64,000 bases of DNA from an uncultured Gammaproteobacteria bacterium. GTDB lineage: Bacteria; Patescibacteriota; Patescibacteriia; UBA11705; DATKZF01. The DNA lies in the NCBI GenBank assembly GCA_964411255.1, contig CAYPKD010000002.1, positions 162,141 through 226,140 on the forward strand, read 5' to 3'. The notes under the pieces are model-generated. The model searched no databases. It worked only from the letters and a program-made list of their open reading frames with translations, and was not told the DNA's origin. Numbering within the stretch: the stretch's first letter is position 1; the number at the start of each line of letters is the position of its first letter. The translations under genes were made by a program, and so were the position numbers. This document shows positions 12,013-54,389 of this stretch, piece after piece.

Positions 12013-12478
12013 AAGCGAGATAAGCAAGACGAGCAAGAAAGCGAGACAAGTAATCCTTTAATATGGAAAATAAAAAAGAAATAAAAAGTTTTAAAGATAT
12101 TATTGTTTGGCAAAAAGCTCATCAATTGGTTCTGGAAATATATAAGATAACCAAGAATTTCCCAAGCGAAGAGCGATTTTGTTTGGTCAGTCAGATGAGA
12201 AGAGCGGTCATATCAGTAACTGCTAATATTGTTGAAGGTTTTGCCAGGAAAAAGATTTTAGAAAGTTTAAATTTTTATAATATTTCAAATGCTTCTTTAG
12301 AGGAATTAAAATATTTTATATTAATTTGTTATGATATTAATCTAATAACTAAAAATACTTATAGCAAACTATTTGAAATGAGCAAAGAGACAGGAAGGAC
12401 TTTACATGGTTGGATACAAAGTCAAAAAGTTAATGCCAACTTGTCTTGCTCGTTTCACTAGTCTTGCTTGTCTCGCTT
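12013..12478 (+). mobile_element. inverted-repeat-flanked cassette carrying a four-helix-bundle gene (MITE-like, putative)
   Basis: Left inverted repeat AAGCGAGATAAGCAAGACGAGCAAGAAAGCGAGACAAGT at 12013-12051. Right inverted repeat ACTTGTCTTGCTCGTTTCACTAGTCTTGCTTGTCTCGCTT at 12439-12478, which encodes the last 7 codons and the stop. The same repeat family recurs at 13307-13327 and as an apparently empty pair at 34994-35083. Confidence 0.35.
12063..12461 (+). CDS. four-helix-bundle protein (TIGR02436-like; 23S rRNA intervening-sequence protein family)
   Basis: WQKAHQLVLEIYKITKNFPSEERFCLVSQMRRAVISVTANIVEGFAR is typical of the family. Confidence 0.7.
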   Translation: MENKKEIKSFKDIIVWQKAHQLVLEIYKITKNFPSEERFCLVSQMRRAVISVTANIVEGFARKKILESLNFYNISNASLEELKYFILICYDINLITKNTYSKLFEMSKETGRTLHGWIQSQKVNANLSCSFH

Positions 12479-12485
12479 TAACCAT

Positions 12486-13091
12486 ATGGGAGAGCTTACA
12501 AAAAAACAATCAGAAATTTTACGCTTTATAAGTGATTATGTAAAAGAATATGATTATGCGCCAAGCTATCGGGAGATAGGGGATAATTTTAAGATTTCAT
12601 CTCCAGCTACCATTCATCAGCATATTCAAACATTAAAATCCAAAGGATTTTTAGATGTTGATGCGCAAAAAGCCAGATCTATTGAATTGACCAATAAAGT
12701 AATCAAGATGGGCAGAAGCATTGAATTGCCTTTAGTTGGTATGATTACTGCTGGACAGCCGATTGAAGCAATTGAACAAAATGAAACAATGGCCGTGCCT
12801 GCTGATTTAGTCAGAGATGAGAATTCATACATCTTAAAAGTAAAAGGAGAATCAATGATTGAAGAAGGTATTTTTAACGGTGATTTTGTGATTATTGAAA
12901 GAAACAATTATCCTCAGAATGGAGACGTAGTTGTCGCTTTATTAAATAATGCGTATGTCACTTTGAAAAAGTTTTATCGGGAAGCGACCCGCATTCGGCT
13001 GCAGCCTGCCAATTCATCTATGAAACCTATTTATTGCAAAGACGTGGCTATCAGAGGAATTGTAAAAGCTATTATTCGTAAATTTGTTTAA
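12486..13091 (+). CDS. lexA: LexA repressor (S24 peptidase)
   Basis: N-terminal wHTH, Ala-Gly cleavage site (ITAGQP), and catalytic Ser/Lys context VKGESM ... TLKKF. Alternative start at 12468 lies inside the repeat. Confidence 0.8.
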   Translation: MGELTKKQSEILRFISDYVKEYDYAPSYREIGDNFKISSPATIHQHIQTLKSKGFLDVDAQKARSIELTNKVIKMGRSIELPLVGMITAGQPIEAIEQNETMAVPADLVRDENSYILKVKGESMIEEGIFNGDFVIIERNNYPQNGDVVVALLNNAYVTLKKFYREATRIRLQPANSSMKPIYCKDVAIRGIVKAIIRKFV

Positions 13092-13338
13092 TACATAACA
13101 AGCATGGGCAGAAGAATGGGGAGGAGTAAATTAATTCATTTTAATTTCTCCCTCTCCTTGTTCTTCTGTTAACCCCAGCTTTTCTCAACCTTATGTCAAA
13201 AAGAAAAATAAAATCAATTTATCGGAAGGCTGTTGGATTTTGGAGAGATTTGACTATCAATGTTTAATTAGAGTAAGGCATGTAAAACAAGTGTGATATA
13301 TATATGGCGACTTGTCTTGCTTGTCGCATTATTTATTT

Positions 13339-20959: not shown

Positions 20960-21703
20960 ATGAGTAAAAAGAAATTACAAGTAGGAATTTTATCAATGAC
21001 ATCTTGCGAGGGATGCTGCTTTGCTTTACTAGATGCAACGGAAAAGTATTTAGAATTGTTTAAAGAAGTTGATTTTTCTTTTTTTCGATTATGGAAGCCA
21101 GAAGAAAATATAGCATTGAAAAAATTTGATATTTGTTTTGTAGAGGGTAGTCCAATTACTAAGCATAATATTGAGCAGCTAAAAACAGCCAGGCAAAACA
21201 GCAAAATTTTAGCCAGCTTTGGAACATGTGCGCATTTGGGCGGTATTTATCATTTGAAAAATTATTATAATAAGGACGAAATTATAAAAGAAGTATATAC
21301 AGAAACAAAAGGCATTGATAATCCATATGTATATCCAGCAAGTCATTATGTGAAAATAGATTTTGATGTACCAGCATGTCCAATTGATGCTAAAGAATTT
21401 TTTAGGATGATTAATGAAATAATTATTGGACGCTTGCCAAAAATTCCACAGCATACTGTATGTTATGATTGCCAGAAAAATGGATATCAGTGCGTTTTGC
21501 AAAAAGGCGAAATTTGTTTAGGTCCAATTACCCAAACTGGCTGCAATGCGATTTGCTTGAAAAGTAAACAGGGCTGCTGGGGTTGCAGGGGATTGATAAA
21601 AGATGCAGAAGTTGAGAACCTTACAAAATTATTGAAAAAGAAACATACGACAAAGGAAATTAAAGACGCTCTGGAAATTTTTGGGATTAGGGATTTTATT
21701 TAA
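20960..21703 (+). CDS. hydD: [NiFe] hydrogenase small (delta) subunit
   Basis: N-terminal Cys motif SMTSCEGCC, later GTCAHLGG and ACPIDAKEFF. Confidence 0.7.
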   Translation: MSKKKLQVGILSMTSCEGCCFALLDATEKYLELFKEVDFSFFRLWKPEENIALKKFDICFVEGSPITKHNIEQLKTARQNSKILASFGTCAHLGGIYHLKNYYNKDEIIKEVYTETKGIDNPYVYPASHYVKIDFDVPACPIDAKEFFRMINEIIIGRLPKIPQHTVCYDCQKNGYQCVLQKGEICLGPITQTGCNAICLKSKQGCWGCRGLIKDAEVENLTKLLKKKHTTKEIKDALEIFGIRDFI

Positions 21704-23139
21704 AATAAAACGACTGGAAACCTGTTAGAATCCAGCCGTGATATTTAAGGCGTGCCCCAAGTACAAGGATTTGGAGGCCCAGCCTTACTTTCCGGCCAAG
21801 GAAAGAGGCCAAAAAAGTACTTGGAGCACATAGATGCCCAAGGCGCAGAAAGTTTTATAACCAGGAATTCTATCAGAATTCTGATGGTTGTTGACCTGGT
21901 ATAATCAAACCGCACCTTGGGACAATGCTGCTGTATGCAGCAAATTAAGTTTATTAAAAATTTGTATTTCAGTCAAGTATTTAAAAATTAAAGACTGAGC
22001 ACTCGTTGAGACTCAGTCTTTATAGTTGTTTAGGAGGTAATCTGAAGAATATTGTTGAACCCATTTCCTCAGACTGCGATGCATAATTAAAATTAATAAG
22101 TGAGCCTACATATTAGCTTTATTTGCCACATTACCTATGCATTAACAAAATTGGCAAAGCTAGCTTAGGCCTCGTAGCTTCAGAGTGGTTCTGAAGCCGA
22201 ACCTGACCCTCCTCGATCAGTTCAGATTCTACATTTTTACTTTCCATGTTGAAAGTGCTGGGTTCAGAGCATGTAGATTATCATAATAATATAGCATAGT
22301 TTTTAAATAAAGTCAATAGATTAAATTTATACAAAATTAAAAGCTGAAAGTATGACTTTCAGCAAGTAAATAAGAAGGGGGAAGAGGTTGCACAGAAAAG
22401 AGATTTTGCCCACTTTTCTGTACTATGTTTCATAGATTCCGGGTAAAAATTTGTGAAGACCAGCAAAGATCAGCAAAACATTACAGACATTTTATTGCGG
22501 CCACTACTTAAACCCTGGGCGGCATTAAAAGGTTTTGTAGCTATACTGAAATGCTGAGCTAACCCTCTAAAATTAGCTCCTTCCTGTGTTCATCTGGGCA
22601 TGAGTAATAGAAAACAGGATCATATATATTTTATCATAATGTGATAAAAATGTCAAGTATTAGTTTTTTAAAAAAGAAAGACTGAGAACTCATGGAGTCT
22701 CAGTCTGTCAACGTTTTTGGAGGTGTTCAGAAAAATTGTGAGCCCTGGTCTTCTGAACGAGGTTTTTAATTAATTTAAAATTAATTATAGTTGAGCTATT
22801 ACTGCACCTTCCTGACCCTTCATATAAAAAATTTTTTTTACGCATGATTCATTTATAGATCACACGCACGAGAAAGGGGTGGGGCAGGCAGATGCAAAGC
22901 TCGTAGCTGTTTCTGCAGAACTGCTGCAGATTCAGCCTGCTGGTCCTCCAAACCAGCTGATCCATTCTCCTTTGGATGTCCAAATTTAGAGGCACCCAGG
23001 GCTCAAGGAGATTATCATGGATCATGTTACATATATAGTATAGCATATATTTCAATAAAAGTCAATATGTATTATAAAAAATTAGCTAATTTTAGCTAAA
23101 ATTTACAAAAAATATTATTGCTTAGATATTAAATAAAAT
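21704..23139. repeat. 1.4-kb ORF-free, hairpin-dense region of diverged tandem repeats inside the hydrogenase operon
   Basis: Two homologous units of about 680 bp begin GTCAAGTATT (21972 and 22653). Each carries a conserved stem AGACTGAG(A)/(T)CTCAGTCT (21990-22022 and 22678-22709) whose loops differ. Further hairpins at 21757/21817, 22183-22203 and 22342-22365. GC-rich islands. Confidence 0.6.
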
Positions 23140-24402
23140 ATGAAAACAATAAAAATAAACCATATTGCTAAAACTGAAGGTCACATGAGTTTTATAGGCT
23201 CATTGCTTGAGGGTGATATTGCAAAAGCCAAACTGGAAACTGAAGAAGGTGCTAGACTGTTTGAAGGCATGGTCATTGGCCGGCCATATTATCAAATGCC
23301 AGTAATTGTAGCCAGAATCTGCGGTGTTTGCCCGATTGTTCACAATTTAGCTTCGGTTAAAGCAATAGAAAATGCTTTTAATGTCAAAGTGAGTAAAGAA
23401 GTTATTTTACTTCGAAAAATATTGGAATTTGTTCAGATAATTCATAGCCATACTTTGCACATGTTCTTTTTGTCTTTTCCTGATTTGGTTGGAGTTTCAA
23501 ATAATACAGATATTGTAAAAAAATATCCAAAGCAGTCGAAGATTGCATTGGAAGTCAGGGATTGGGCTGTGCAAATGGCAAAGCTTATTGGCGGCAGAAC
23601 TGTGCATCCGATCAATAGTGTAGTCGGTGGATTTAATGTTTTGCCAGATGAAGAAAAGCTAGCTTTATATTTAAAACAAATTCCAAAACAGGTAAAGCTA
23701 TCGGTTAAACTTTTTGACTTTTTAAAAAATCATAAAATTCCAAAGTTTTCAAACCCTTCAAATTATTTGGCTTTAAAAACGAAAAATGAATATGCTATTT
23801 ATGATGGCAAAGTATATTTTTTGGATAATAAAAAAACACAGGATTCAAAAATGTTTTATTCAGACGTCGCTGAAGAAAGCTTGCCATATCAGACAGTGAA
23901 ACGTGCTTATCATTTTGATCAGCCAATGATGTGCGGCGCTTTGGCCAGAATAAATTGTAATTGTAATCAATTAAATAAAGTGGCAAAGAAAAACTGGAAA
24001 GAACTTAGAGTGAAAATGCCAGATTATAATCCATTTCATAATATTTTAGCTCAAGCAGTAGAAGTTATACATTGCTATGAAGAATGTGATAAATTAATTT
24101 CTCAATATATGAGAATCAAAGATAAAAATATACAAGCTAAATATAAAGTAAAAGAGGGAAGAGGGATTGGAGTGATTGAAGCGCCGCGGGGTCTTTTGTT
24201 TCATGAATATAAATTTGATAAGCAAGGATTAATGAAGGAATGCAATATTTTAACGCCAACATCCTTGTTTATTGCTAATTTAGAAAAAGATTTAGAACAA
24301 TATTTACCAACATTAAACAATTTAACAGATGAGAAAAGAGATTTAATGATAAAAACATTGATCAGGGCGTATGACCCTTGTGTTTCCTGCGCCACTCATT
24401 AG
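23140..24402 (+). CDS. hydA: [NiFe] hydrogenase large (alpha) subunit
   Basis: N-terminal RICGVCPIVH (RxCGxCxxxH). C-terminal DPCVSCATH is the very end of the protein, so there is no C-terminal extension. Confidence 0.85.
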   Translation: MKTIKINHIAKTEGHMSFIGSLLEGDIAKAKLETEEGARLFEGMVIGRPYYQMPVIVARICGVCPIVHNLASVKAIENAFNVKVSKEVILLRKILEFVQIIHSHTLHMFFLSFPDLVGVSNNTDIVKKYPKQSKIALEVRDWAVQMAKLIGGRTVHPINSVVGGFNVLPDEEKLALYLKQIPKQVKLSVKLFDFLKNHKIPKFSNPSNYLALKTKNEYAIYDGKVYFLDNKKTQDSKMFYSDVAEESLPYQTVKRAYHFDQPMMCGALARINCNCNQLNKVAKKNWKELRVKMPDYNPFHNILAQAVEVIHCYEECDKLISQYMRIKDKNIQAKYKVKEGRGIGVIEAPRGLLFHEYKFDKQGLMKECNILTPTSLFIANLEKDLEQYLPTLNNLTDEKRDLMIKTLIRAYDPCVSCATH

Positions 24403-33396: not shown

Positions 33397-33834
33397 TTAT
33401 GTGGATTTTACTGAAAACTGTGGAAGACTAGAGAGCTTTTGAATAATCCATTTACCAATACGGTATAGCACGATGCCAACTATGAACGGGGAGTGAATCA
33501 CAAATTTCCATGTATTTGCTAGAATCTTGATTGGCCAAAAGAGGATCAATAGTACTGAGTAAGTACCTCTATTTAATGATTCAACGGGGGGTGAGGGAAC
33601 ATCCTCATCATATTCGTGGCAAATATATTTTCCTTCTTTATGATTCATGTAATGGCCCGGGAAGAGAAAATATCCATACCAAACAGGTTTTAGTAATATT
33701 TCATAGCAGTCTTTTTCTACTTTTGAGCCATGCCATACTTTGATACTATATTTGAGAAGAAATCGGCCAATTTGATAATATACTGTTGCAGCACCAATAA
33801 TTACAAGTATGATTTCAATGAAAGATCTTTCCAC
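33397..33834 (-). CDS. tandem-paralog membrane protein C (diverged)
   Basis: Related to 33938..34360 and 34465..34923 (IGYL/IGRFL ... WH ... WP(I/M)K(I/V)L). Confidence 0.5.
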   Translation of the reverse strand: MERSFIEIILVIIGAATVYYQIGRFLLKYSIKVWHGSKVEKDCYEILLKPVWYGYFLFPGHYMNHKEGKYICHEYDEDVPSPPVESLNRGTYSVLLILFWPIKILANTWKFVIHSPFIVGIVLYRIGKWIIQKLSSLPQFSVKST

Positions 33835-33919
33835 TTTTGCCTCCTTGCTGGGGGTGGGGGAAGAAACATTTCAATATATTACTTAAAAAAATAATTTTTG
33901 TCAAGAAATAAAAAATCCC

Positions 33920-33945
33920 TGGTTTTGAACCAAGGGATTATGCAG
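33920..33945 (-). terminator. terminator module AATCCCTGGTTTTGAACCAAGGGATT (copy 1)
   Basis: Palindromic hairpin. The minus strand is followed by TTTTTATTTCTTGACAAAAATT. An identical module lies at 34441-34466. Confidence 0.6.
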
Positions 33946-34360
33946 AGTTTATTCTGAAGATTTTTCTTATCGGCAGAGTAAAAAGCTTTCCAATTTGAAT
34001 TATCAATAAAGCAACACCGTAAATGATAGCTATGGGAAGGCCAATACCTATCAGACCAGATGTATTAAACAATACCTTTATTGGCCACGAAAGCATCATC
34101 GCTCGTTTGTATTGTCTTTCATTCATTAGATCTATTGGCACACCAGGAGCAATAGCAATTGAGAATGATATTGGAAATATTAGATAAACATACCAATATT
34201 TTGTAATTTTGCGTTTATAATCAGAGTTGTTAATATTCTTATTGCTGATGACATTATGCCAGGTTTTCCAGCTGATATGCGCAAACAGGTAGCCTATATT
34301 GCAATAAATGAAAAGACTTATAAATATTACCAATACCCAAGTCATAGTTGATAGTTCCAT
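33938..34360 (-). CDS. tandem-paralog membrane protein B
   Basis: About 60% identical to 34465..34923 (CNIGYLFAHISWKTWHN). Confidence 0.55.
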   Translation of the reverse strand: MELSTMTWVLVIFISLFIYCNIGYLFAHISWKTWHNVISNKNINNSDYKRKITKYWYVYLIFPISFSIAIAPGVPIDLMNERQYKRAMMLSWPIKVLFNTSGLIGIGLPIAIIYGVALLIIQIGKLFTLPIRKIFRINSA

Positions 34361-34440
34361 TTATAACCCCCTAATTGTTGTTGTGAAAGGACTAATTATT
34401 ATACTTTACAGGTAATACGAATTTTTGTCAAGAAATAAAA

Positions 34441-34466
34441 AATCCCTGGTTTTGAACCAAGGGATT
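34441..34466 (-). terminator. terminator module AATCCCTGGTTTTGAACCAAGGGATT (copy 2)
   Basis: Identical to copy 1. Overlaps the stop of 34465..34923. Confidence 0.6.
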
Positions 34467-34923
34467 ATACTGAATTAATTTTGAATAATTTCTTTACAGG
34501 TAGAGTGAAAAGTTTTCCGATTTGGATTGCGAGTAACCCAATGACATAGCCAATAGCTATAGGAATTCCTAATAACCATATTATAGTCCCAATATTTTGA
34601 CAAATGATTATTGTTAATGAAAGAATATTATATATTATTTTCATTGGCCACAAGAACATCATCATTCGCTTGTATTGTTTTTCTTTCATTCCATCTATTG
34701 GCACTTCTTCACCACCGCATTCATAGAATGACATAGGGAATATCAGATAAGCATACCAATATTTCGTGATTTTGCGCTTATTATTAAAGTAGTTAATCTT
34801 CTTGTTGAGGATGATATTGTGCCAGGTTTTCCAGCTAATATGAGCGAGTAGATAGCCAATGTTGCAATAAACAAATACGATGCATATAATTATTAATGTC
34901 CAAGCACTTGCAGATATTTCCAT
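34465..34923 (-). CDS. tandem-paralog membrane protein A
   Basis: CNIGYLLAHISWKTWHN. 3-4 TM segments. Confidence 0.55.
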   Translation of the reverse strand: MEISASAWTLIIICIVFVYCNIGYLLAHISWKTWHNIILNKKINYFNNKRKITKYWYAYLIFPMSFYECGGEEVPIDGMKEKQYKRMMMFLWPMKIIYNILSLTIIICQNIGTIIWLLGIPIAIGYVIGLLAIQIGKLFTLPVKKLFKINSV

Positions 34924-34993: not shown

Positions 34994-35083
34994 GATAAGC
35001 AAGACAAACGAGACAAGTGAAATATGTAAAAGAATTGGAGACTTGTCTTGCTCGTCTTGCTCGTTTAACTTGTCTTGCTTATA
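34994..35083. repeat. apparently empty inverted-repeat pair of the AGCAAGACAAGT / ACTTGTCTTGCT cassette family (MITE-like)
   Basis: Left GATAAGCAAGACAAACGAGACAAGTGA and right GACTTGTCTTGCTCGTCTTGCTCGTTTAACTTGTCTTGCTTAT are separated by only 20 bp. Lies immediately upstream of the manC-like start. Confidence 0.5.
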
Positions 35084-51080: not shown

Positions 51081-51147
51081 ATGAGTTGATTTATTCACTT
51101 GACCAAAGTTTATTATTTCGCTAAAATATAGATGCTTTTATCACTAA

Positions 51148-51456
51148 TTGTGGATAAAATTTATTTTTTTAAAAAACAATCGAATGGAAAAAACAAAAAA
51201 ACAAAAACCATGGGTTAGCTCTCTGAGCCTAGCGTTTCAATTGGGCTATACTATTGCAATTCCATTAGTAGTATTAGCTTTATTGGGCAGATTTTTAGAT
51301 AAAAAGTTTGATACGTCTCCATGGCTACTTTTAGCTGGAATATTGCTTTCTTTAATGATCACCAGCTGGATGATTTATATAAAAATTTCAAAAATAATAG
51401 CAGATTTAGGTAAGTGTGAAAAAAAAGTAGACAAGTTGAAAGAGGGGGAAAAATAG
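51148..51456 (+). CDS. ATP synthase protein I / AtpZ-like small membrane protein
   Basis: Two TM helices directly upstream of atpB. The start may be the internal Met at 51184. Confidence 0.45.
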   Translation: MWIKFIFLKNNRMEKTKKQKPWVSSLSLAFQLGYTIAIPLVVLALLGRFLDKKFDTSPWLLLAGILLSLMITSWMIYIKISKIIADLGKCEKKVDKLKEGEK

Positions 51457-51537: not shown

Positions 51538-52284
51538 ATGGAAATTTCTCTAGCCGCTGAACCAATTTTTCATATAGGAGGATTTGAAGTGACTAATTCA
51601 TTATTAACCGCCTGGATTGTGGTGGCTTTTTTAGTTATTGTGTCAATTGCTTTGAAAAAGAAAATAAAGAAAGTGCCTAAAGGACTCCAAAATTTTGTCG
51701 AAGCAATGTTTGAAAGTTTTTTGAAAATTATGGATAGCGTATCTGGCAGTCGAAAACAGAGTATTAAATTTTTTCCAATAGTAGTAACCATATTTTTATT
51801 TGTAATTTTTAACAATTGGATTGGTCTGATCCCGGGTGTCGGCACTATTGGCTTTAATGAAGTCCATAATGGCCATGAGGTTTTTGTGCCTCTTTTCCGA
51901 GCAGGCAGCGCCGATTTGAATTTCACCCTGGCAGTGGCGATAATTGCAGTAGCCTCGACTCATTTCTTTGGTATTGTGGCTCTTGGTTTTGCAAAGCACA
52001 TGAAAAAATTTATAGATTTGAAAAAATTATACAAGGATCCAGTAATGTTTTTTGTTGGCATTTTAGAAATTATCGGAGAAATCGCAAAAACCGTGTCATT
52101 TTCTTTTCGTTTATTTGGAAACATATTTGCCGGAGAAGTTTTGTTAACTGTAGTTGCAATACTAGTACCGTATGTAGCGCCATTGCCATTTTTGTTTTTA
52201 GAAGTTTTTGTTGGTTTGATTCAGGCAGCTGTTTTTGCCATGCTAACTTTGGTGTTTTTAAGTTTGCAGACGTCAGAACATTAA
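51538..52284 (+). CDS. atpB: ATP synthase F0 subunit a
   Basis: LFGNIFAGEVLL motif containing the essential Arg region. Polytopic. Confidence 0.85.
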   Translation: MEISLAAEPIFHIGGFEVTNSLLTAWIVVAFLVIVSIALKKKIKKVPKGLQNFVEAMFESFLKIMDSVSGSRKQSIKFFPIVVTIFLFVIFNNWIGLIPGVGTIGFNEVHNGHEVFVPLFRAGSADLNFTLAVAIIAVASTHFFGIVALGFAKHMKKFIDLKKLYKDPVMFFVGILEIIGEIAKTVSFSFRLFGNIFAGEVLLTVVAILVPYVAPLPFLFLEVFVGLIQAAVFAMLTLVFLSLQTSEH

Positions 52285-52503: not shown

Positions 52504-52731
52504 ATGGAATTAGAAGCTGTAAAATCAATTGCTGCTGGATTGGCAATCGCTGTTGGCGGTTTTGGCCCAGCTTTAGCAATTGGCAAAATCGGAGAAAAGG
52601 CATTGGATTCAATCGGTAGAAATCCAGAATCAGCATCAAAGATCCAAGCTCCAATGATTATTGGGATAGCTTTTGCTGAAGCGGTAGCTATTTATGCATT
52701 GGTAATCGCATTGATTGTAAAATTCGTCTAG
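52504..52731 (+). CDS. atpE: ATP synthase F0 subunit c
   Basis: GLAIAVGGFGPALAIGKIG ... IGIAFAEAVAIYALVIALI. 75 aa. Confidence 0.9.
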   Translation: MELEAVKSIAAGLAIAVGGFGPALAIGKIGEKALDSIGRNPESASKIQAPMIIGIAFAEAVAIYALVIALIVKFV

Positions 52732-53320
52732 ATGGCGCTAGAAGGCGAAATATGGCGTAAGAAGTGAGAAAAGAGATAGAAGGCGAAGCCAAATATTGAA
52801 AACTTCTTACGCCCCTTACGTATTTTAGTCGTTTAACCTAAATAAGAACGAATATGTCAAAGGAGGCAAAAAGTGGTGTTAGACATAAGAATATGATTGT
52901 CTGGCAAATGGCAGACAAGTTGGATAAATATATTCAAAAAGTAATTTTAAAGAAAATACCACGATATGAATATAAGATAAGGACACAAATTGATAGTGCT
53001 TCAGATTCAATAAGTGCAAATTTTGTTGAAGGATATTATAGTGGATCACTCAATGAATATATACGATTTTGTAAGTATAGTAGAAGGTCTATTGGAGAAC
53101 TGCATGATAGAGTGGAAAGAACACTAAGAAAAGAATATATAGCTCAAGATGAATTTAATAAATTTGAGGATATCTCAATAAAAACCGGATTTCTTTTTGA
53201 TAGATTACTTAATTCACTTAATAACAAAAAGGAAAGAGAGGAAAAATAGTTGGTAGCGTTTTCTTTGCCTTATATCACCTCTAGCGCCCTCTTACGTCCT
53301 CTTTCGCCTTATAAAAAAAT
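52732..53320 (+). mobile_element. second four-helix-bundle cassette with flanking inverted repeats, inserted between atpE and atpF
   Basis: Left flank contains GGCGCTAGA, AAGGCGAAA and the 12-bp stem GGCGTAAGAAGT/ACTTCTTACGCC. Right flank contains the complementary TCTAGCGCC, CTTACGTCC and CTTTCGCC. Confidence 0.35.
52854..53249 (+). CDS. four-helix-bundle protein (TIGR02436-like), second copy
   Basis: MIVWQMADKL...SISANFVEGYYSGSLNEYIRFCKYSRRSIGELHDRVE matches the family pattern (W-Q-x-A, A-N-I-V-E-G, G-E-L). Confidence 0.65.
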   Translation: MSKEAKSGVRHKNMIVWQMADKLDKYIQKVILKKIPRYEYKIRTQIDSASDSISANFVEGYYSGSLNEYIRFCKYSRRSIGELHDRVERTLRKEYIAQDEFNKFEDISIKTGFLFDRLLNSLNNKKEREEK

Positions 53321-53830
53321 ATGGAAGAATTATTTCATAAGCTTGGCATTAATTGGAAGCTTTTAATTGCTCAGGCAATAAATTTCACCATTGTTTTAAT
53401 TGTACTTCACCGATTTGTCTATAAACCTTTGCTTAAGATGCTGAAGGACAGACAAAAAAAGATTGACCAGAGTTTAAAAGATGCGGAAAAGGTTGAAGAA
53501 AATTTGAAAAAATCAAAAATTGAAAGGGAAAACCAGGTTGCCCTAGGAAGAAAAGAAGCTGAAAAGATAATCGAAAGTACAAATAAAACAGCAGACGAAA
53601 TTAAAAAACAAAAGGTAAGTGAAGCAAAGGATGAATCAGCGGCTGTTATAAAAGAGGCAAAAGAAAAGATTCAAATGGAAAGGGGCCAAATGATAGAAGA
53701 TGTTAAGGCTGAGTTGGGAGAATTAGTTCTTTTAGCATCGAAAAAAGTGACCAAGGATTCGGTTGATAAAGCTACTCACCAAAAGTTGATTGATGAAGCT
53801 ATTATTGATTTGCGAAAAGCAAAGATTTAA
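53321..53830 (+). CDS. atpF: ATP synthase F0 subunit b
   Basis: N-terminal TM helix followed by a long charged coiled coil. Confidence 0.8.
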   Translation: MEELFHKLGINWKLLIAQAINFTIVLIVLHRFVYKPLLKMLKDRQKKIDQSLKDAEKVEENLKKSKIERENQVALGRKEAEKIIESTNKTADEIKKQKVSEAKDESAAVIKEAKEKIQMERGQMIEDVKAELGELVLLASKKVTKDSVDKATHQKLIDEAIIDLRKAKI

Positions 53831-53849: not shown

Positions 53850-54389
53850 ATGCCAATCAGAAATATAAAACATTATTCAAAGGCATTATTGGATCTTGGC
53901 AGGCAATATGATATTTTAGATGAAATATTAGCAGACATAGAAGATGTTGCGGAAAAGCTAAATGCCAATCTTGATTTAAAAAAATATTTGCTCGACCCAC
54001 AGATCAAAATGTCAAAGAAAAAGCAAGCACTAAAGGCTGTGTTTCAGGATTTTATTTCTGAGAAAACGTATAATTTTTTATTTATTTTAATTAAAGACAA
54101 AACAATAGCATATCTGGACCAAATAATCGGAGACGTTCATAAGAAAAGAAAAGATGAAGAAGATGTGCTAGAGGCCATTGTAGAGTCTGTTGTACCTGTA
54201 GAAAGTAAGGAAGAGGATATTATAAAAAAGACATTGGCTGAAAAAACGAATAAAAGAATTTTAATAAAGAATCTAATTGAACCAAAATTGATTGGCGGTC
54301 TGAAAATTACTATTGGAGATATGGTGATAGACAGTTCCGTTCAGGGAAAATTAGACAGATTGAGAAATATAATAAGAAAATTAAATTAA
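53850..54389 (+). CDS. atpH: ATP synthase F1 delta subunit (OSCP)
   Basis: ORF 53790..54389. The ATG at 53850 (MPIRNIKHYSKALLDLG) lies just after the atpF stop. C-terminal LIGGLKITIGDMVIDSSVQGKL. Confidence 0.75.
   Translation: MPIRNIKHYSKALLDLGRQYDILDEILADIEDVAEKLNANLDLKKYLLDPQIKMSKKKQALKAVFQDFISEKTYNFLFILIKDKTIAYLDQIIGDVHKKRKDEEDVLEAIVESVVPVESKEEDIIKKTLAEKTNKRILIKNLIEPKLIGGLKITIGDMVIDSSVQGKLDRLRNIIRKLN

Follow-up and report, generated by a model that had tools for sequence, protein, structure and literature searches.

Since about 1990, intervening sequences (IVSs) have been known as curiosities by which 23S rRNA is fragmented. The IVS that Coxiella burnetii has within its 23S rRNA gene contains an open reading frame (ORF) for an S23p protein, 5′ of which lie tandem GACAGAT heptamers that vary in number between strains, and it ends in a 28-bp terminal inverted stem with mapped RNase III cuts inside it (PMC4990558). 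The origin of this IVS and the role of its ORF were stated to be unknown, and for IVSs in general the origin, mobility and role of the ORF remain open (PMC4990558). Members of the same protein family, PF05635, are encoded in insertions in the 16S and 23S rRNA genes of bacteria of the candidate phyla radiation (CPR), where they were called functionally uncharacterised (bioRxiv 10.1101/2024.02.27.582315). A cyanobacterial family member whose gene is flanked by cmr3 and cmr2 was read as being associated with cas genes (PMC3936711), others have been reported among strain-specific genes, and the family is recognised in the literature as homologous to Avd, the accessory protein of diversity-generating retroelements (DGRs). 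Here we describe a PF05635 cassette that is inserted between atpE and atpF in the ATP synthase operon of a member of the Patescibacteria (CPR), in a stretch of 64,000 nucleotides with a G+C content of 34% (hereafter the window; contig CAYPKD010000002.1 of assembly GCA_964411255.1). On either side of the gene is an array of short tandem repeats, the two arrays being opposed, and on balance we favour the view that the whole is an IVS-type cassette in an mRNA.

The cassette lies between atpE (c subunit, PF00137; 52504..52731, + strand) and atpF (b subunit, homologues of which match PF00430; 53321..53830, +), both of which were taken from the ORF list. The atpE stop codon TAG (52729-52731) abuts the cassette and the atpF ATG begins 11 nt beyond its 3′ array. 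The ORF at 52854..53249 (+) encodes a protein of 131 amino acids (aa) with an isoelectric point of 9.45 that belongs to the four-helix-bundle PF05635/TIGR02436/S23p/Avd-like proteins, with matches to PF05635 (E 3.1e-18, 66.4 bits against a cut-off of 33.8) and TIGR02436 (E 2e-14, 53.7 bits against a cut-off of 24). An earlier note on this DNA had placed a TIGR02436-like gene between the c and b subunit genes, and the model matches bear this out. The flank words and the 12-bp stem that it listed are also present at the positions given, although what it described as structured, partly inverted flanks is not a loose set of words but a pair of opposed tandem arrays in a layout that is family-wide.

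The 5′ arm (52732..52791, +) is a purine-type array of about six units in a roughly 10-nt register, read from the sequence and from repeats D5, D6, I1 and I9. In order, the units are ATGGCGCTAG / AAGGCGAAAT / ATGGCGTAAG / AAGTGAGAAA / AGAGATAGAA / GGCGAAGCC. The first base of the array directly follows the atpE stop and the array begins as GGCGCTAGAA / GGCGAAATAT / GGCGTAAGAA, with the 10-nt register seen at 52734/52744/52754 and with three GGCG units plus degenerate units. The 3′ arm (53260..53309, +) is a pyrimidine-type array of five units in an exact 10-nt register (D1 spacing 10,10; I1/I9/I18), namely TTTCTTTGCC / TTATATCACC / TCTAGCGCCC / TCTTACGTCC / TCTTTCGCCT, and is complementary to the 5′ arm. 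The unit GGCGCTAGA at 52734 has its complement at 53280, GGCGTAAGA at 52754 has complements at 52805 and, imperfectly, at 53290, and GGCGAAAGA has its complement at 53300. Two short pyrimidine-type units, ACTTCTTACGCC and CCTTACGT (direct-repeat families D1 and D8; 52802..52821, +), are located 5′ of the ORF. The first of these takes part in a local hairpin in the 5′ flank (52754..52813, +; inverted repeat I10, 100% complementary), which has a perfect 12-bp stem, GGCGTAAGAAGT/ACTTCTTACGCC, with arms at 52754-65 and 52802-13 and a 36-nt loop; 11 of the 12 positions are kept in L148, the orthologous locus described below. The local hairpin uses the third unit of the 5′ arm and rivals the long-range pairing of that unit.

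The motif GGCGNNAGA occurs 11 times in the window compared with 2.8 ± 1.7 expected, a count that was reached in no shuffle, and 5 of the 11 occurrences fall in the 590-bp atpE-atpF spacer. The predicted RNA fold of 52725-53325 brings the arms together as a stem that encloses the ORF, in the minimum free energy structure and in the centroid structure alike (z = −4.25), the 3′ arm being paired with 52734-52790. The arm-arm duplex has an energy of −54.5 kcal/mol compared with −37.5 ± 5.1 kcal/mol in shuffles, and the arms of L148 pair too (−51 kcal/mol). Between them the arms are predicted to be able to form a duplex of about 50 bp, with interruptions, from which the ORF is looped out. Chance matches in the purine-rich spacer of an ordinary small accessory gene could be put forward to explain the flank words, as short two-copy repeats often are due to chance and the window is AT-rich; set against the clustered excess of the motif, the exact register of the units, the conservation of the arrays in the L148 orthologue and the same layout at about 100 independent loci, this explanation is scarcely credible.

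The atp operons of relatives were compared at two depths. Searches with AtpB retrieved the atp operons of 55 more distant relatives, and no PF05635 homologue lies within 4 kb in any of them; the atpE-atpF spacer is covered in 53, with a gap of about 10-290 nt between the two genes. Among GTDB species representatives the window AtpB is at most 55% identical to those of Moranbacteria and Magasanikbacteria genomes. Three closer relatives, L147, L148 and L149, were found with AtpF. In L148 (AtpB 82% and AtpE 91% identical to the window proteins) an orthologous cassette is present at the same site and aligns end to end, with a 2-nt deletion that splits the cassette ORF. In L149 (AtpB 75% and AtpE 87% identical, with the same TatD-atpI-B-E-F synteny) the spacer is 76 nt long and contains a small hairpin but no cassette. 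The contig of L147, the closest relative (AtpA 94% identical), is cut 131 nt before atpF and these 131 nt include no GCC array. The occupied site in L148 and the empty sites in L149 and the 53 distant operons uphold the earlier view of a discrete cassette inserted in the atp operon. The insertion is lineage-specific rather than universal, and it is polymorphic, occupied or empty, inside an essential operon; the cassette entered the atpE-atpF spacer in an ancestor of the window species and the L148 organism.

Some further features of these operons were observed. The hairpin in the L149 spacer (ctaaatcttag/ctaggatttag) has a longer version in L147; in both (L147:1-131 and L149:2425-2500) it consists of TTTAGAAT-like units of about 8 nt and lies just 5′ of atpF. 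The two share a 27-nt sequence, AGGATTTAGAAATTAGAATTTAGAATT, and the L147 contig breaks inside the repeat. The spacer may be a recurrent site for array-type hairpins. In L148 the public atpF call begins 19 codons early, inside the pyrimidine array of the cassette (L148:1919-1975). Two Magasanikbacteria-like operons have a long distance from atpE to atpA; the same cassette was rejected as the cause, as the extra 127-130-aa ORF (L022:6230-6613 and L030:6311-6703) has no Pfam match and lies between atpH and atpA. A third operon (L012) has about 750 extra non-coding bases between these same two genes.

The window and L148 cassettes are 83% identical in the 5′ array, 86% in the 3′ array and 78% in the ORF, compared with 40-47% in the non-array spacers, and the codons of the two ORFs differ by 34 synonymous and 24 non-synonymous changes. 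The arrays and the ORF have been kept while the spacers diverged, which shows that both are under constraint, that is, under purifying selection. A selfish nature of the cassette, as was suggested in the earlier note, is plausible. The stronger conservation of the arrays than of the ORF would also be expected of a domesticated regulatory module of the atp operon, in which a hairpin after atpE processes or stabilises the transcript and uncouples the abundant c subunit, with the ORF as a passenger or co-factor. The position of the cassette exactly at the c/b boundary, where it takes up all of the spacer but the last 11 nt before the atpF start, and the repeat-type hairpins kept in the spacers of the ORF-less relatives L149 and L147 are in keeping with such a module. 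The same type of cassette is found, however, in unrelated contexts that include cas operons, none of the other atp operons examined that span the spacer contains it, and in L148 its ORF is split, and we regard domestication as quite improbable.

The structure of the 131-aa protein was modelled as a monomer with AlphaFold2, using 40 homologues as input (mean predicted local distance difference test score 94.7). The model has four long helices (residues 15-34, 40-61, 66-92 and 98-130) and is predicted to adopt the up-down four-helix-bundle fold of 2GSC and 2RLD. The best Foldseek matches were 2GSC (Xcc0516), 2RLD (BT_0352), 4DWL (Avd) and 8UBE (a DGR ribonucleoprotein); for 2GSC the TM-score is 0.78-0.83 normalised to the query and 0.91-0.94 normalised to the target, with an rmsd (root-mean-square deviation) of 0.9-1.3 Å. 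Only generic helical bundles ranked below the 2GSC/2RLD/Avd group, no nuclease or recombinase fold was recognisable in the bundle by Foldseek, and an identity as a HEPN-like RNase was ruled out on this ranking. Xcc0516 is the closest solved structure by sequence and, like 2RLD and 4DWL, was deposited with five chains; it has been reported to be a homopentamer (PMC4990558). By analogy, the atp-cassette protein is probably pentameric.

The structural likeness to Avd raises the question of whether the gene is an orphaned DGR accessory gene, with flanks that are decayed template and variable repeats. The fold matches both bAvd and the DGR ribonucleoprotein, and a paralogue upstream of lexA in the window matches the bAvd Pfam model. 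The atp copy itself falls short of that model, no reverse transcriptase gene is present in the atp operon or in the flanks of the homologous loci inspected, and the repeats, as inverted arrays of 7-10-nt tandem units, do not resemble a pair of template and variable repeats about 100 nt long. An orphaned Avd is therefore very unlikely.

Homologues of the cassette protein with 50-77% identity were found in Chloroflexi, Margulisiibacteriota, WOR-3 and Uhrbacteria, a higher identity than AtpB shows beyond the close clade. Their genes are located before the AdoHcyase gene, between genes for an M23 peptidase and an adenosine-kinase-family protein (PF04008), and between a MamF-like gene and the PPDK gene. 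A metagenome scan added 80 loci, and 74 non-redundant loci of the subfamily, from several phyla, were analysed. In these loci GGC recurs every 9-10 nt upstream of the ORF and GCC downstream, the upstream arrays being of the A[A/G]GGC type and the downstream arrays their complement. The unit logo is nAnA[A/G]GGCnnn, with an invariant GGC and an A at position −2 in 90-94% of units. One side has three or more periodic units at 50 of the 74 loci compared with 9 of 192 control windows, and the two arms have 4.15 inverted 9-mers in common within a locus compared with 0.89 across loci. Neighbouring genes are mostly co-directional with the ORF (42/52 upstream and 45/54 downstream), the remainder (10/52 and 9/54) being on the opposite strand; at one distant locus (L159) the upstream gene appears divergent, as judged by eye.

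More distant members of the family have arrays of the same design. Those in IMG/VR, which are 32-43% identical to the lexA-upstream copy, have inverted arrays of heptamers or octamers on their two sides, each locus with units of its own; IMG/VR has no member of the atp-copy subfamily. At 24 of 27 non-redundant distant or b-type loci the arms have at least three 8-mers in common, with periods of 7-9 nt. In total the repeat signature recurs at about 100 loci other than the atp operon. The earlier note would have been refuted by an insertion found throughout the lineage and a signature confined to this site, and neither is the case. The unit core is kept within a subfamily and differs between subfamilies, with a period of 7-10 nt, which suggests that the protein binds the arrays. 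The protein family and the rRNA IVSs are already known; as far as we have found, what is new is that copies outside rRNA share this architecture of inverted tandem arrays and that the insertion is polymorphic within an essential operon. No description of repeat-bracketed PF05635 cassettes outside rRNA was found in the literature searched, with subscription journals mostly outside the search. A plasmid or phage origin was dropped, as tblastn of the cassette protein against PLSDB and the GenBank phages gave no match and the subfamily is missing from IMG/VR.

The cassette consists of a gene for a basic four-helix-bundle protein, homologous to both the S23p proteins of IVSs and Avd, together with the opposed tandem-repeat arrays on its two sides. 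As the + strand of 52732-53320 was found to contain neither a sigma-70-like nor a terminator-like site, the most likely mode of expression is read-through within the atp polycistron; candidate promoters are at 51099 and 52431. The mostly co-directional neighbours at homologous loci fit this mode. In the transcript the purine-type 5′ arm would pair with the pyrimidine-type 3′ arm and loop out the ORF, and the stem is probably cut by RNase III, by analogy with the rRNA IVSs of Coxiella, Leptospira and Salmonella. Cleavage would split atpI-B-E from atpF-H-A-G-D-C, leave a stem remnant on each half and set the ORF RNA free. Binding of the repeat arrays, in the form of RNA or DNA, is the probable role of the Avd-like protein, which is basic and probably a pentamer. 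The reading as a whole, from read-through and stem processing to repeat binding, we consider probable by a modest degree.

Several observations weigh against this reading of an IVS-type cassette in an mRNA. The closest relative, L147, has a different repeat hairpin before atpF, which allows more than one order of gain and loss. No direct duplication is visible at the cassette edges (TAG|ATGGCG ... CGCCTTATAAAAAAAT|ATG), and the boundaries of the cassette cannot be fixed as the empty site of L149 has no alignable spacer sequence. The co-variation of unit and subfamily may be simple co-inheritance of one evolutionary unit. Chimeric pairs of window and L148 arms are as stable as the cognate pairs and so give no sign that pairing has co-evolved. 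Across 65 loci (best gapless segments) the arm mismatches comprise 49 sense-strand wobbles, 49 antisense-strand wobbles and 111 transversions; without a preference for G:U on the sense strand, sense-RNA pairing is not demonstrably what selection keeps, and the asymmetry of duplex energy towards the + strand is weak (42/62 loci, p = 0.009). An RNase III substrate needs no conserved unit core, and the core points to recognition by a protein, possibly at the DNA level.

These points lead to an alternative in which the arrays act on DNA, as transposon-end-like or iteron-like sites about one helical turn apart that are bound by the pentamer or by a host recombinase acting in trans and that serve to define the cassette and to move or maintain it, with RNA pairing as a by-product. 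It would account for a unit core that is kept at a 9-10-nt period while other positions vary, for the different cores of different subfamilies, for arm mismatches with many transversions and no G:U bias, and for an ORF-less hairpin of lexA-type units elsewhere in the window. The opposite-strand neighbours at homologous loci, L159 included, also fit, as they indicate that read-through transcription is not obligatory. The conserved core and helical periodicity agree with protein recognition at least as well as with sense-RNA pairing. Against action on DNA, no transposase or recombinase was found in or adjoining the cassette, whose neighbours are atp genes only, and there is no visible target-site duplication. 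Family members inside rRNA genes need a solution at the RNA level, and cutting of the stem by RNase III has been shown there (PMC4990558); moreover Avd, which among characterised proteins is the closest in structure, functions as part of an RNA-protein complex (8UBE and related structures). We consider arrays that act solely on DNA unlikely.

A more general form of the IVS-type explanation can be proposed only tentatively, and we regard it as possible but doubtful. PF05635 genes would be the cargo of one widespread class of cassette, with opposed 7-10-nt arrays read by a pentamer, that can colonise any transcribed DNA, rRNA helices and the spacers of essential operons alike. Its members would be tolerated through removal by the host RNase III, like introns that are not religated, and only a part of the class, the classical rRNA IVSs, would so far have been visible.

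A second cassette in the window, of another subfamily, lies directly 5′ of lexA (12013..12478, +; lexA is at 12468-13091). It is composed of a 9-nt AAGCRAGAY array (12013-12050), an ORF (12063-12461; PF05635 E 1.2e-34, bAvd E 4.6e-13) and a complementary array (12440-12478) that overlaps the end of the ORF. Tandem Repeats Finder (TRF) gives a period of 9 and the RNA fold contains a long-range stem. The encoded protein is 32% identical to the atp copy. Homologues with 65-69% identity are found directly 5′ of lexA in three other Patescibacteria lineages (lexA loci L177, L178, L180 and L181), and one with 62% identity precedes recQ in a fourth (L179); the AAGCRAGAY-type array layout surrounds the homologues in these four lineages as well. 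The lexA-upstream copy is an old, conserved pairing of a four-helix-bundle gene with lexA behind a conserved promoter region. As judged by eye, the region 5′ of the lexA-linked copies contains a TTATCCACA word (DnaA-box-like), a −35/−10-like pair and GTTCG-type direct repeats, which in relatives are followed by CGAAC-N5/6-CGAAC, possibly a LexA operator. The cassette therefore seems to be placed between an SOS-type promoter and lexA.

The earlier note had drawn on this copy, together with a third cassette in the hydrogenase operon, to argue for repeated invasion of core operons. Repeated invasion is supported only in part: the atp copy is an insertion, but the lexA-upstream copy, as a pairing conserved in three other lineages, is no sign of recent invasion, and a kinship of the hydrogenase cassette is not shown. 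The 1.4-kb gap (21704-23139) between the presumed hydrogenase small-subunit gene (20960-21703) and the NiFe-hydrogenase large-subunit gene (23140-24402) contains no ORF of at least 90 aa, no Rfam match at E ≤ 1 and no PF05635 gene, and the 20 window ORFs scanned besides the two copies gave no PF05635 match. The gap does contain aaagactgagNactc...gagtctcagtct hairpins near 21990 and 22680 and the repeats tatagcata...aaagtcaata near 22290 and 23040.

Other hairpins and repeats were observed in the window. An ORF-less hairpin at 34997..35080 (−) is made up of the 9-nt units AAGCAAGAC/GAGCAAGAC, as in the lexA-upstream cassette (sequence, motif matches and a TRF period of 9). It has a purine arm, a 24-nt loop and a pyrimidine arm, is located between divergent genes (35075, + strand, and 34923, − strand), and could represent the cassette in a solitary or decayed state. 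Directly 3′ of lexA, at 13105-13170, is a further purine-arm/pyrimidine-arm hairpin (cagaagaatggggaggag ... ctccctctccttgttcttctg), which could be a terminator or another ORF-less hairpin of the array type. At 33397-34923 (−) are three paralogous genes in tandem that encode small membrane proteins (145, 140 and 152 aa, with no Pfam match); by eye, each appears to have a promoter-like sequence of its own and a terminator hairpin common to all three (cccttggttcaaaaccaggga followed by a T-run).

The remainder of the atp operon comprises an atpI-like gene (51148-51456) and atpB (51538-52284) upstream of atpE and, downstream of atpF, atpH (which ends at 54389), atpA, atpG, atpD, a gene for a cyclophilin-type peptidyl-prolyl isomerase (PF00160; 58424-59173) and atpC. 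The order of the atp genes is the canonical one that had been noted, but the operon is not fully canonical as the cyclophilin gene between atpD and atpC is a second non-atp insert. The N-terminus of its product resembles a lipoprotein signal, as judged by eye. At the gathering threshold, Rfam models matched only one tRNA in the window and no rRNA, and gave only sub-threshold noise over 52650-53400. The RNase III signature motif was not found in a six-frame translation of the window, which means little for 64 kb.

If these cassettes belong to one class of element, the IVSs are one face of a general cassette, and the reports of cas-associated and strain-specific family members are explained more simply by insertion. 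The old questions of the role of the IVS ORF and the origin of IVSs would become testable if the class is as widespread as proposed. The dozens of natural pairs of protein and repeat with different units, among them the atp-type repeat (AAGGCGNNNN)n, would then be suited to a test of whether an Avd-like pentamer reads its repeat. For annotation, the cassettes can be mistaken for members of an operon, as may already have happened for cas genes, and they can distort start-codon calls, as in the L148 atpF, which is 19 codons too long.

Comparison with known repeat elements shows both similarities and differences. Insertion sequences and miniature inverted-repeat transposable elements (MITEs) have terminal inverted repeats, a target-site duplication and a transposase that acts in cis or in trans. 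The cassette has inverted arrays, with neither a visible target-site duplication nor a transposase, and as its boundaries cannot be fixed it may or may not belong with them. The Correia elements of Neisseria, which are cut by RNase III, and the ERIC and BIME/REP elements are hairpin repeats between genes whose transcription together with the operon is followed by processing. Like the atp cassette, they place inverted repeats in operon spacers; their folding in the mRNA alters processing or stability, as that of the cassette would, and the ORF-less version of the array units at 34997-35080 adds to the likeness. They are, however, non-coding with defined terminal inverted repeats, whereas the cassette has arrays of 7-10-nt units and a conserved protein gene. 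In the REP/REPIN system a RAYT gene has a short repeat in inverted orientation on its two sides, which the RAYT is presumed to recognise, and the repeats are also dispersed without the gene. The cassette likewise has a single gene between inverted copies of a short repeat, but RAYTs are homologues of HUH/Y1 transposases with catalytic motifs, in contrast to a four-helix bundle without a recognisable nuclease or recombinase fold.

The Avd protein of the DGR of Bordetella phage BPP-1 (4DWL, 8UBE) has the same fold as the modelled atp-cassette protein (TM-score 0.73 normalised to the query and 0.88 to the target). Both proteins are basic, and Avd works bound to structured RNA. They share only 11-12% sequence identity, the bAvd model is not reached, and a DGR includes a reverse transcriptase and a template/variable repeat pair, neither of which is present in the cassette.

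The rRNA IVSs (Leptospira, Coxiella burnetii, Brucella and the CPR) differ from the atp cassette in their location, which is in the loop of an rRNA helix (e.g. helix 9, 25 or 45 of 23S rRNA) and not in an mRNA spacer between two essential protein genes. Excision of an IVS fragments the ribosome, whereas excision of the atp cassette would cut a polycistron, and RNase III processing, which is inferred for the cassette, has been shown for the IVSs. The units are also different, those of the cassette being 10 nt with an A[A/T]GGCG core and those of Coxiella GACAGAT heptamers. In both, however, a protein of the S23p/PF05635 family is encoded within complementary termini that can pair as a long stem enclosing the ORF, short tandem repeats precede it (as in the Coxiella IVS), and the element occurs sporadically among relatives without a mobility gene.

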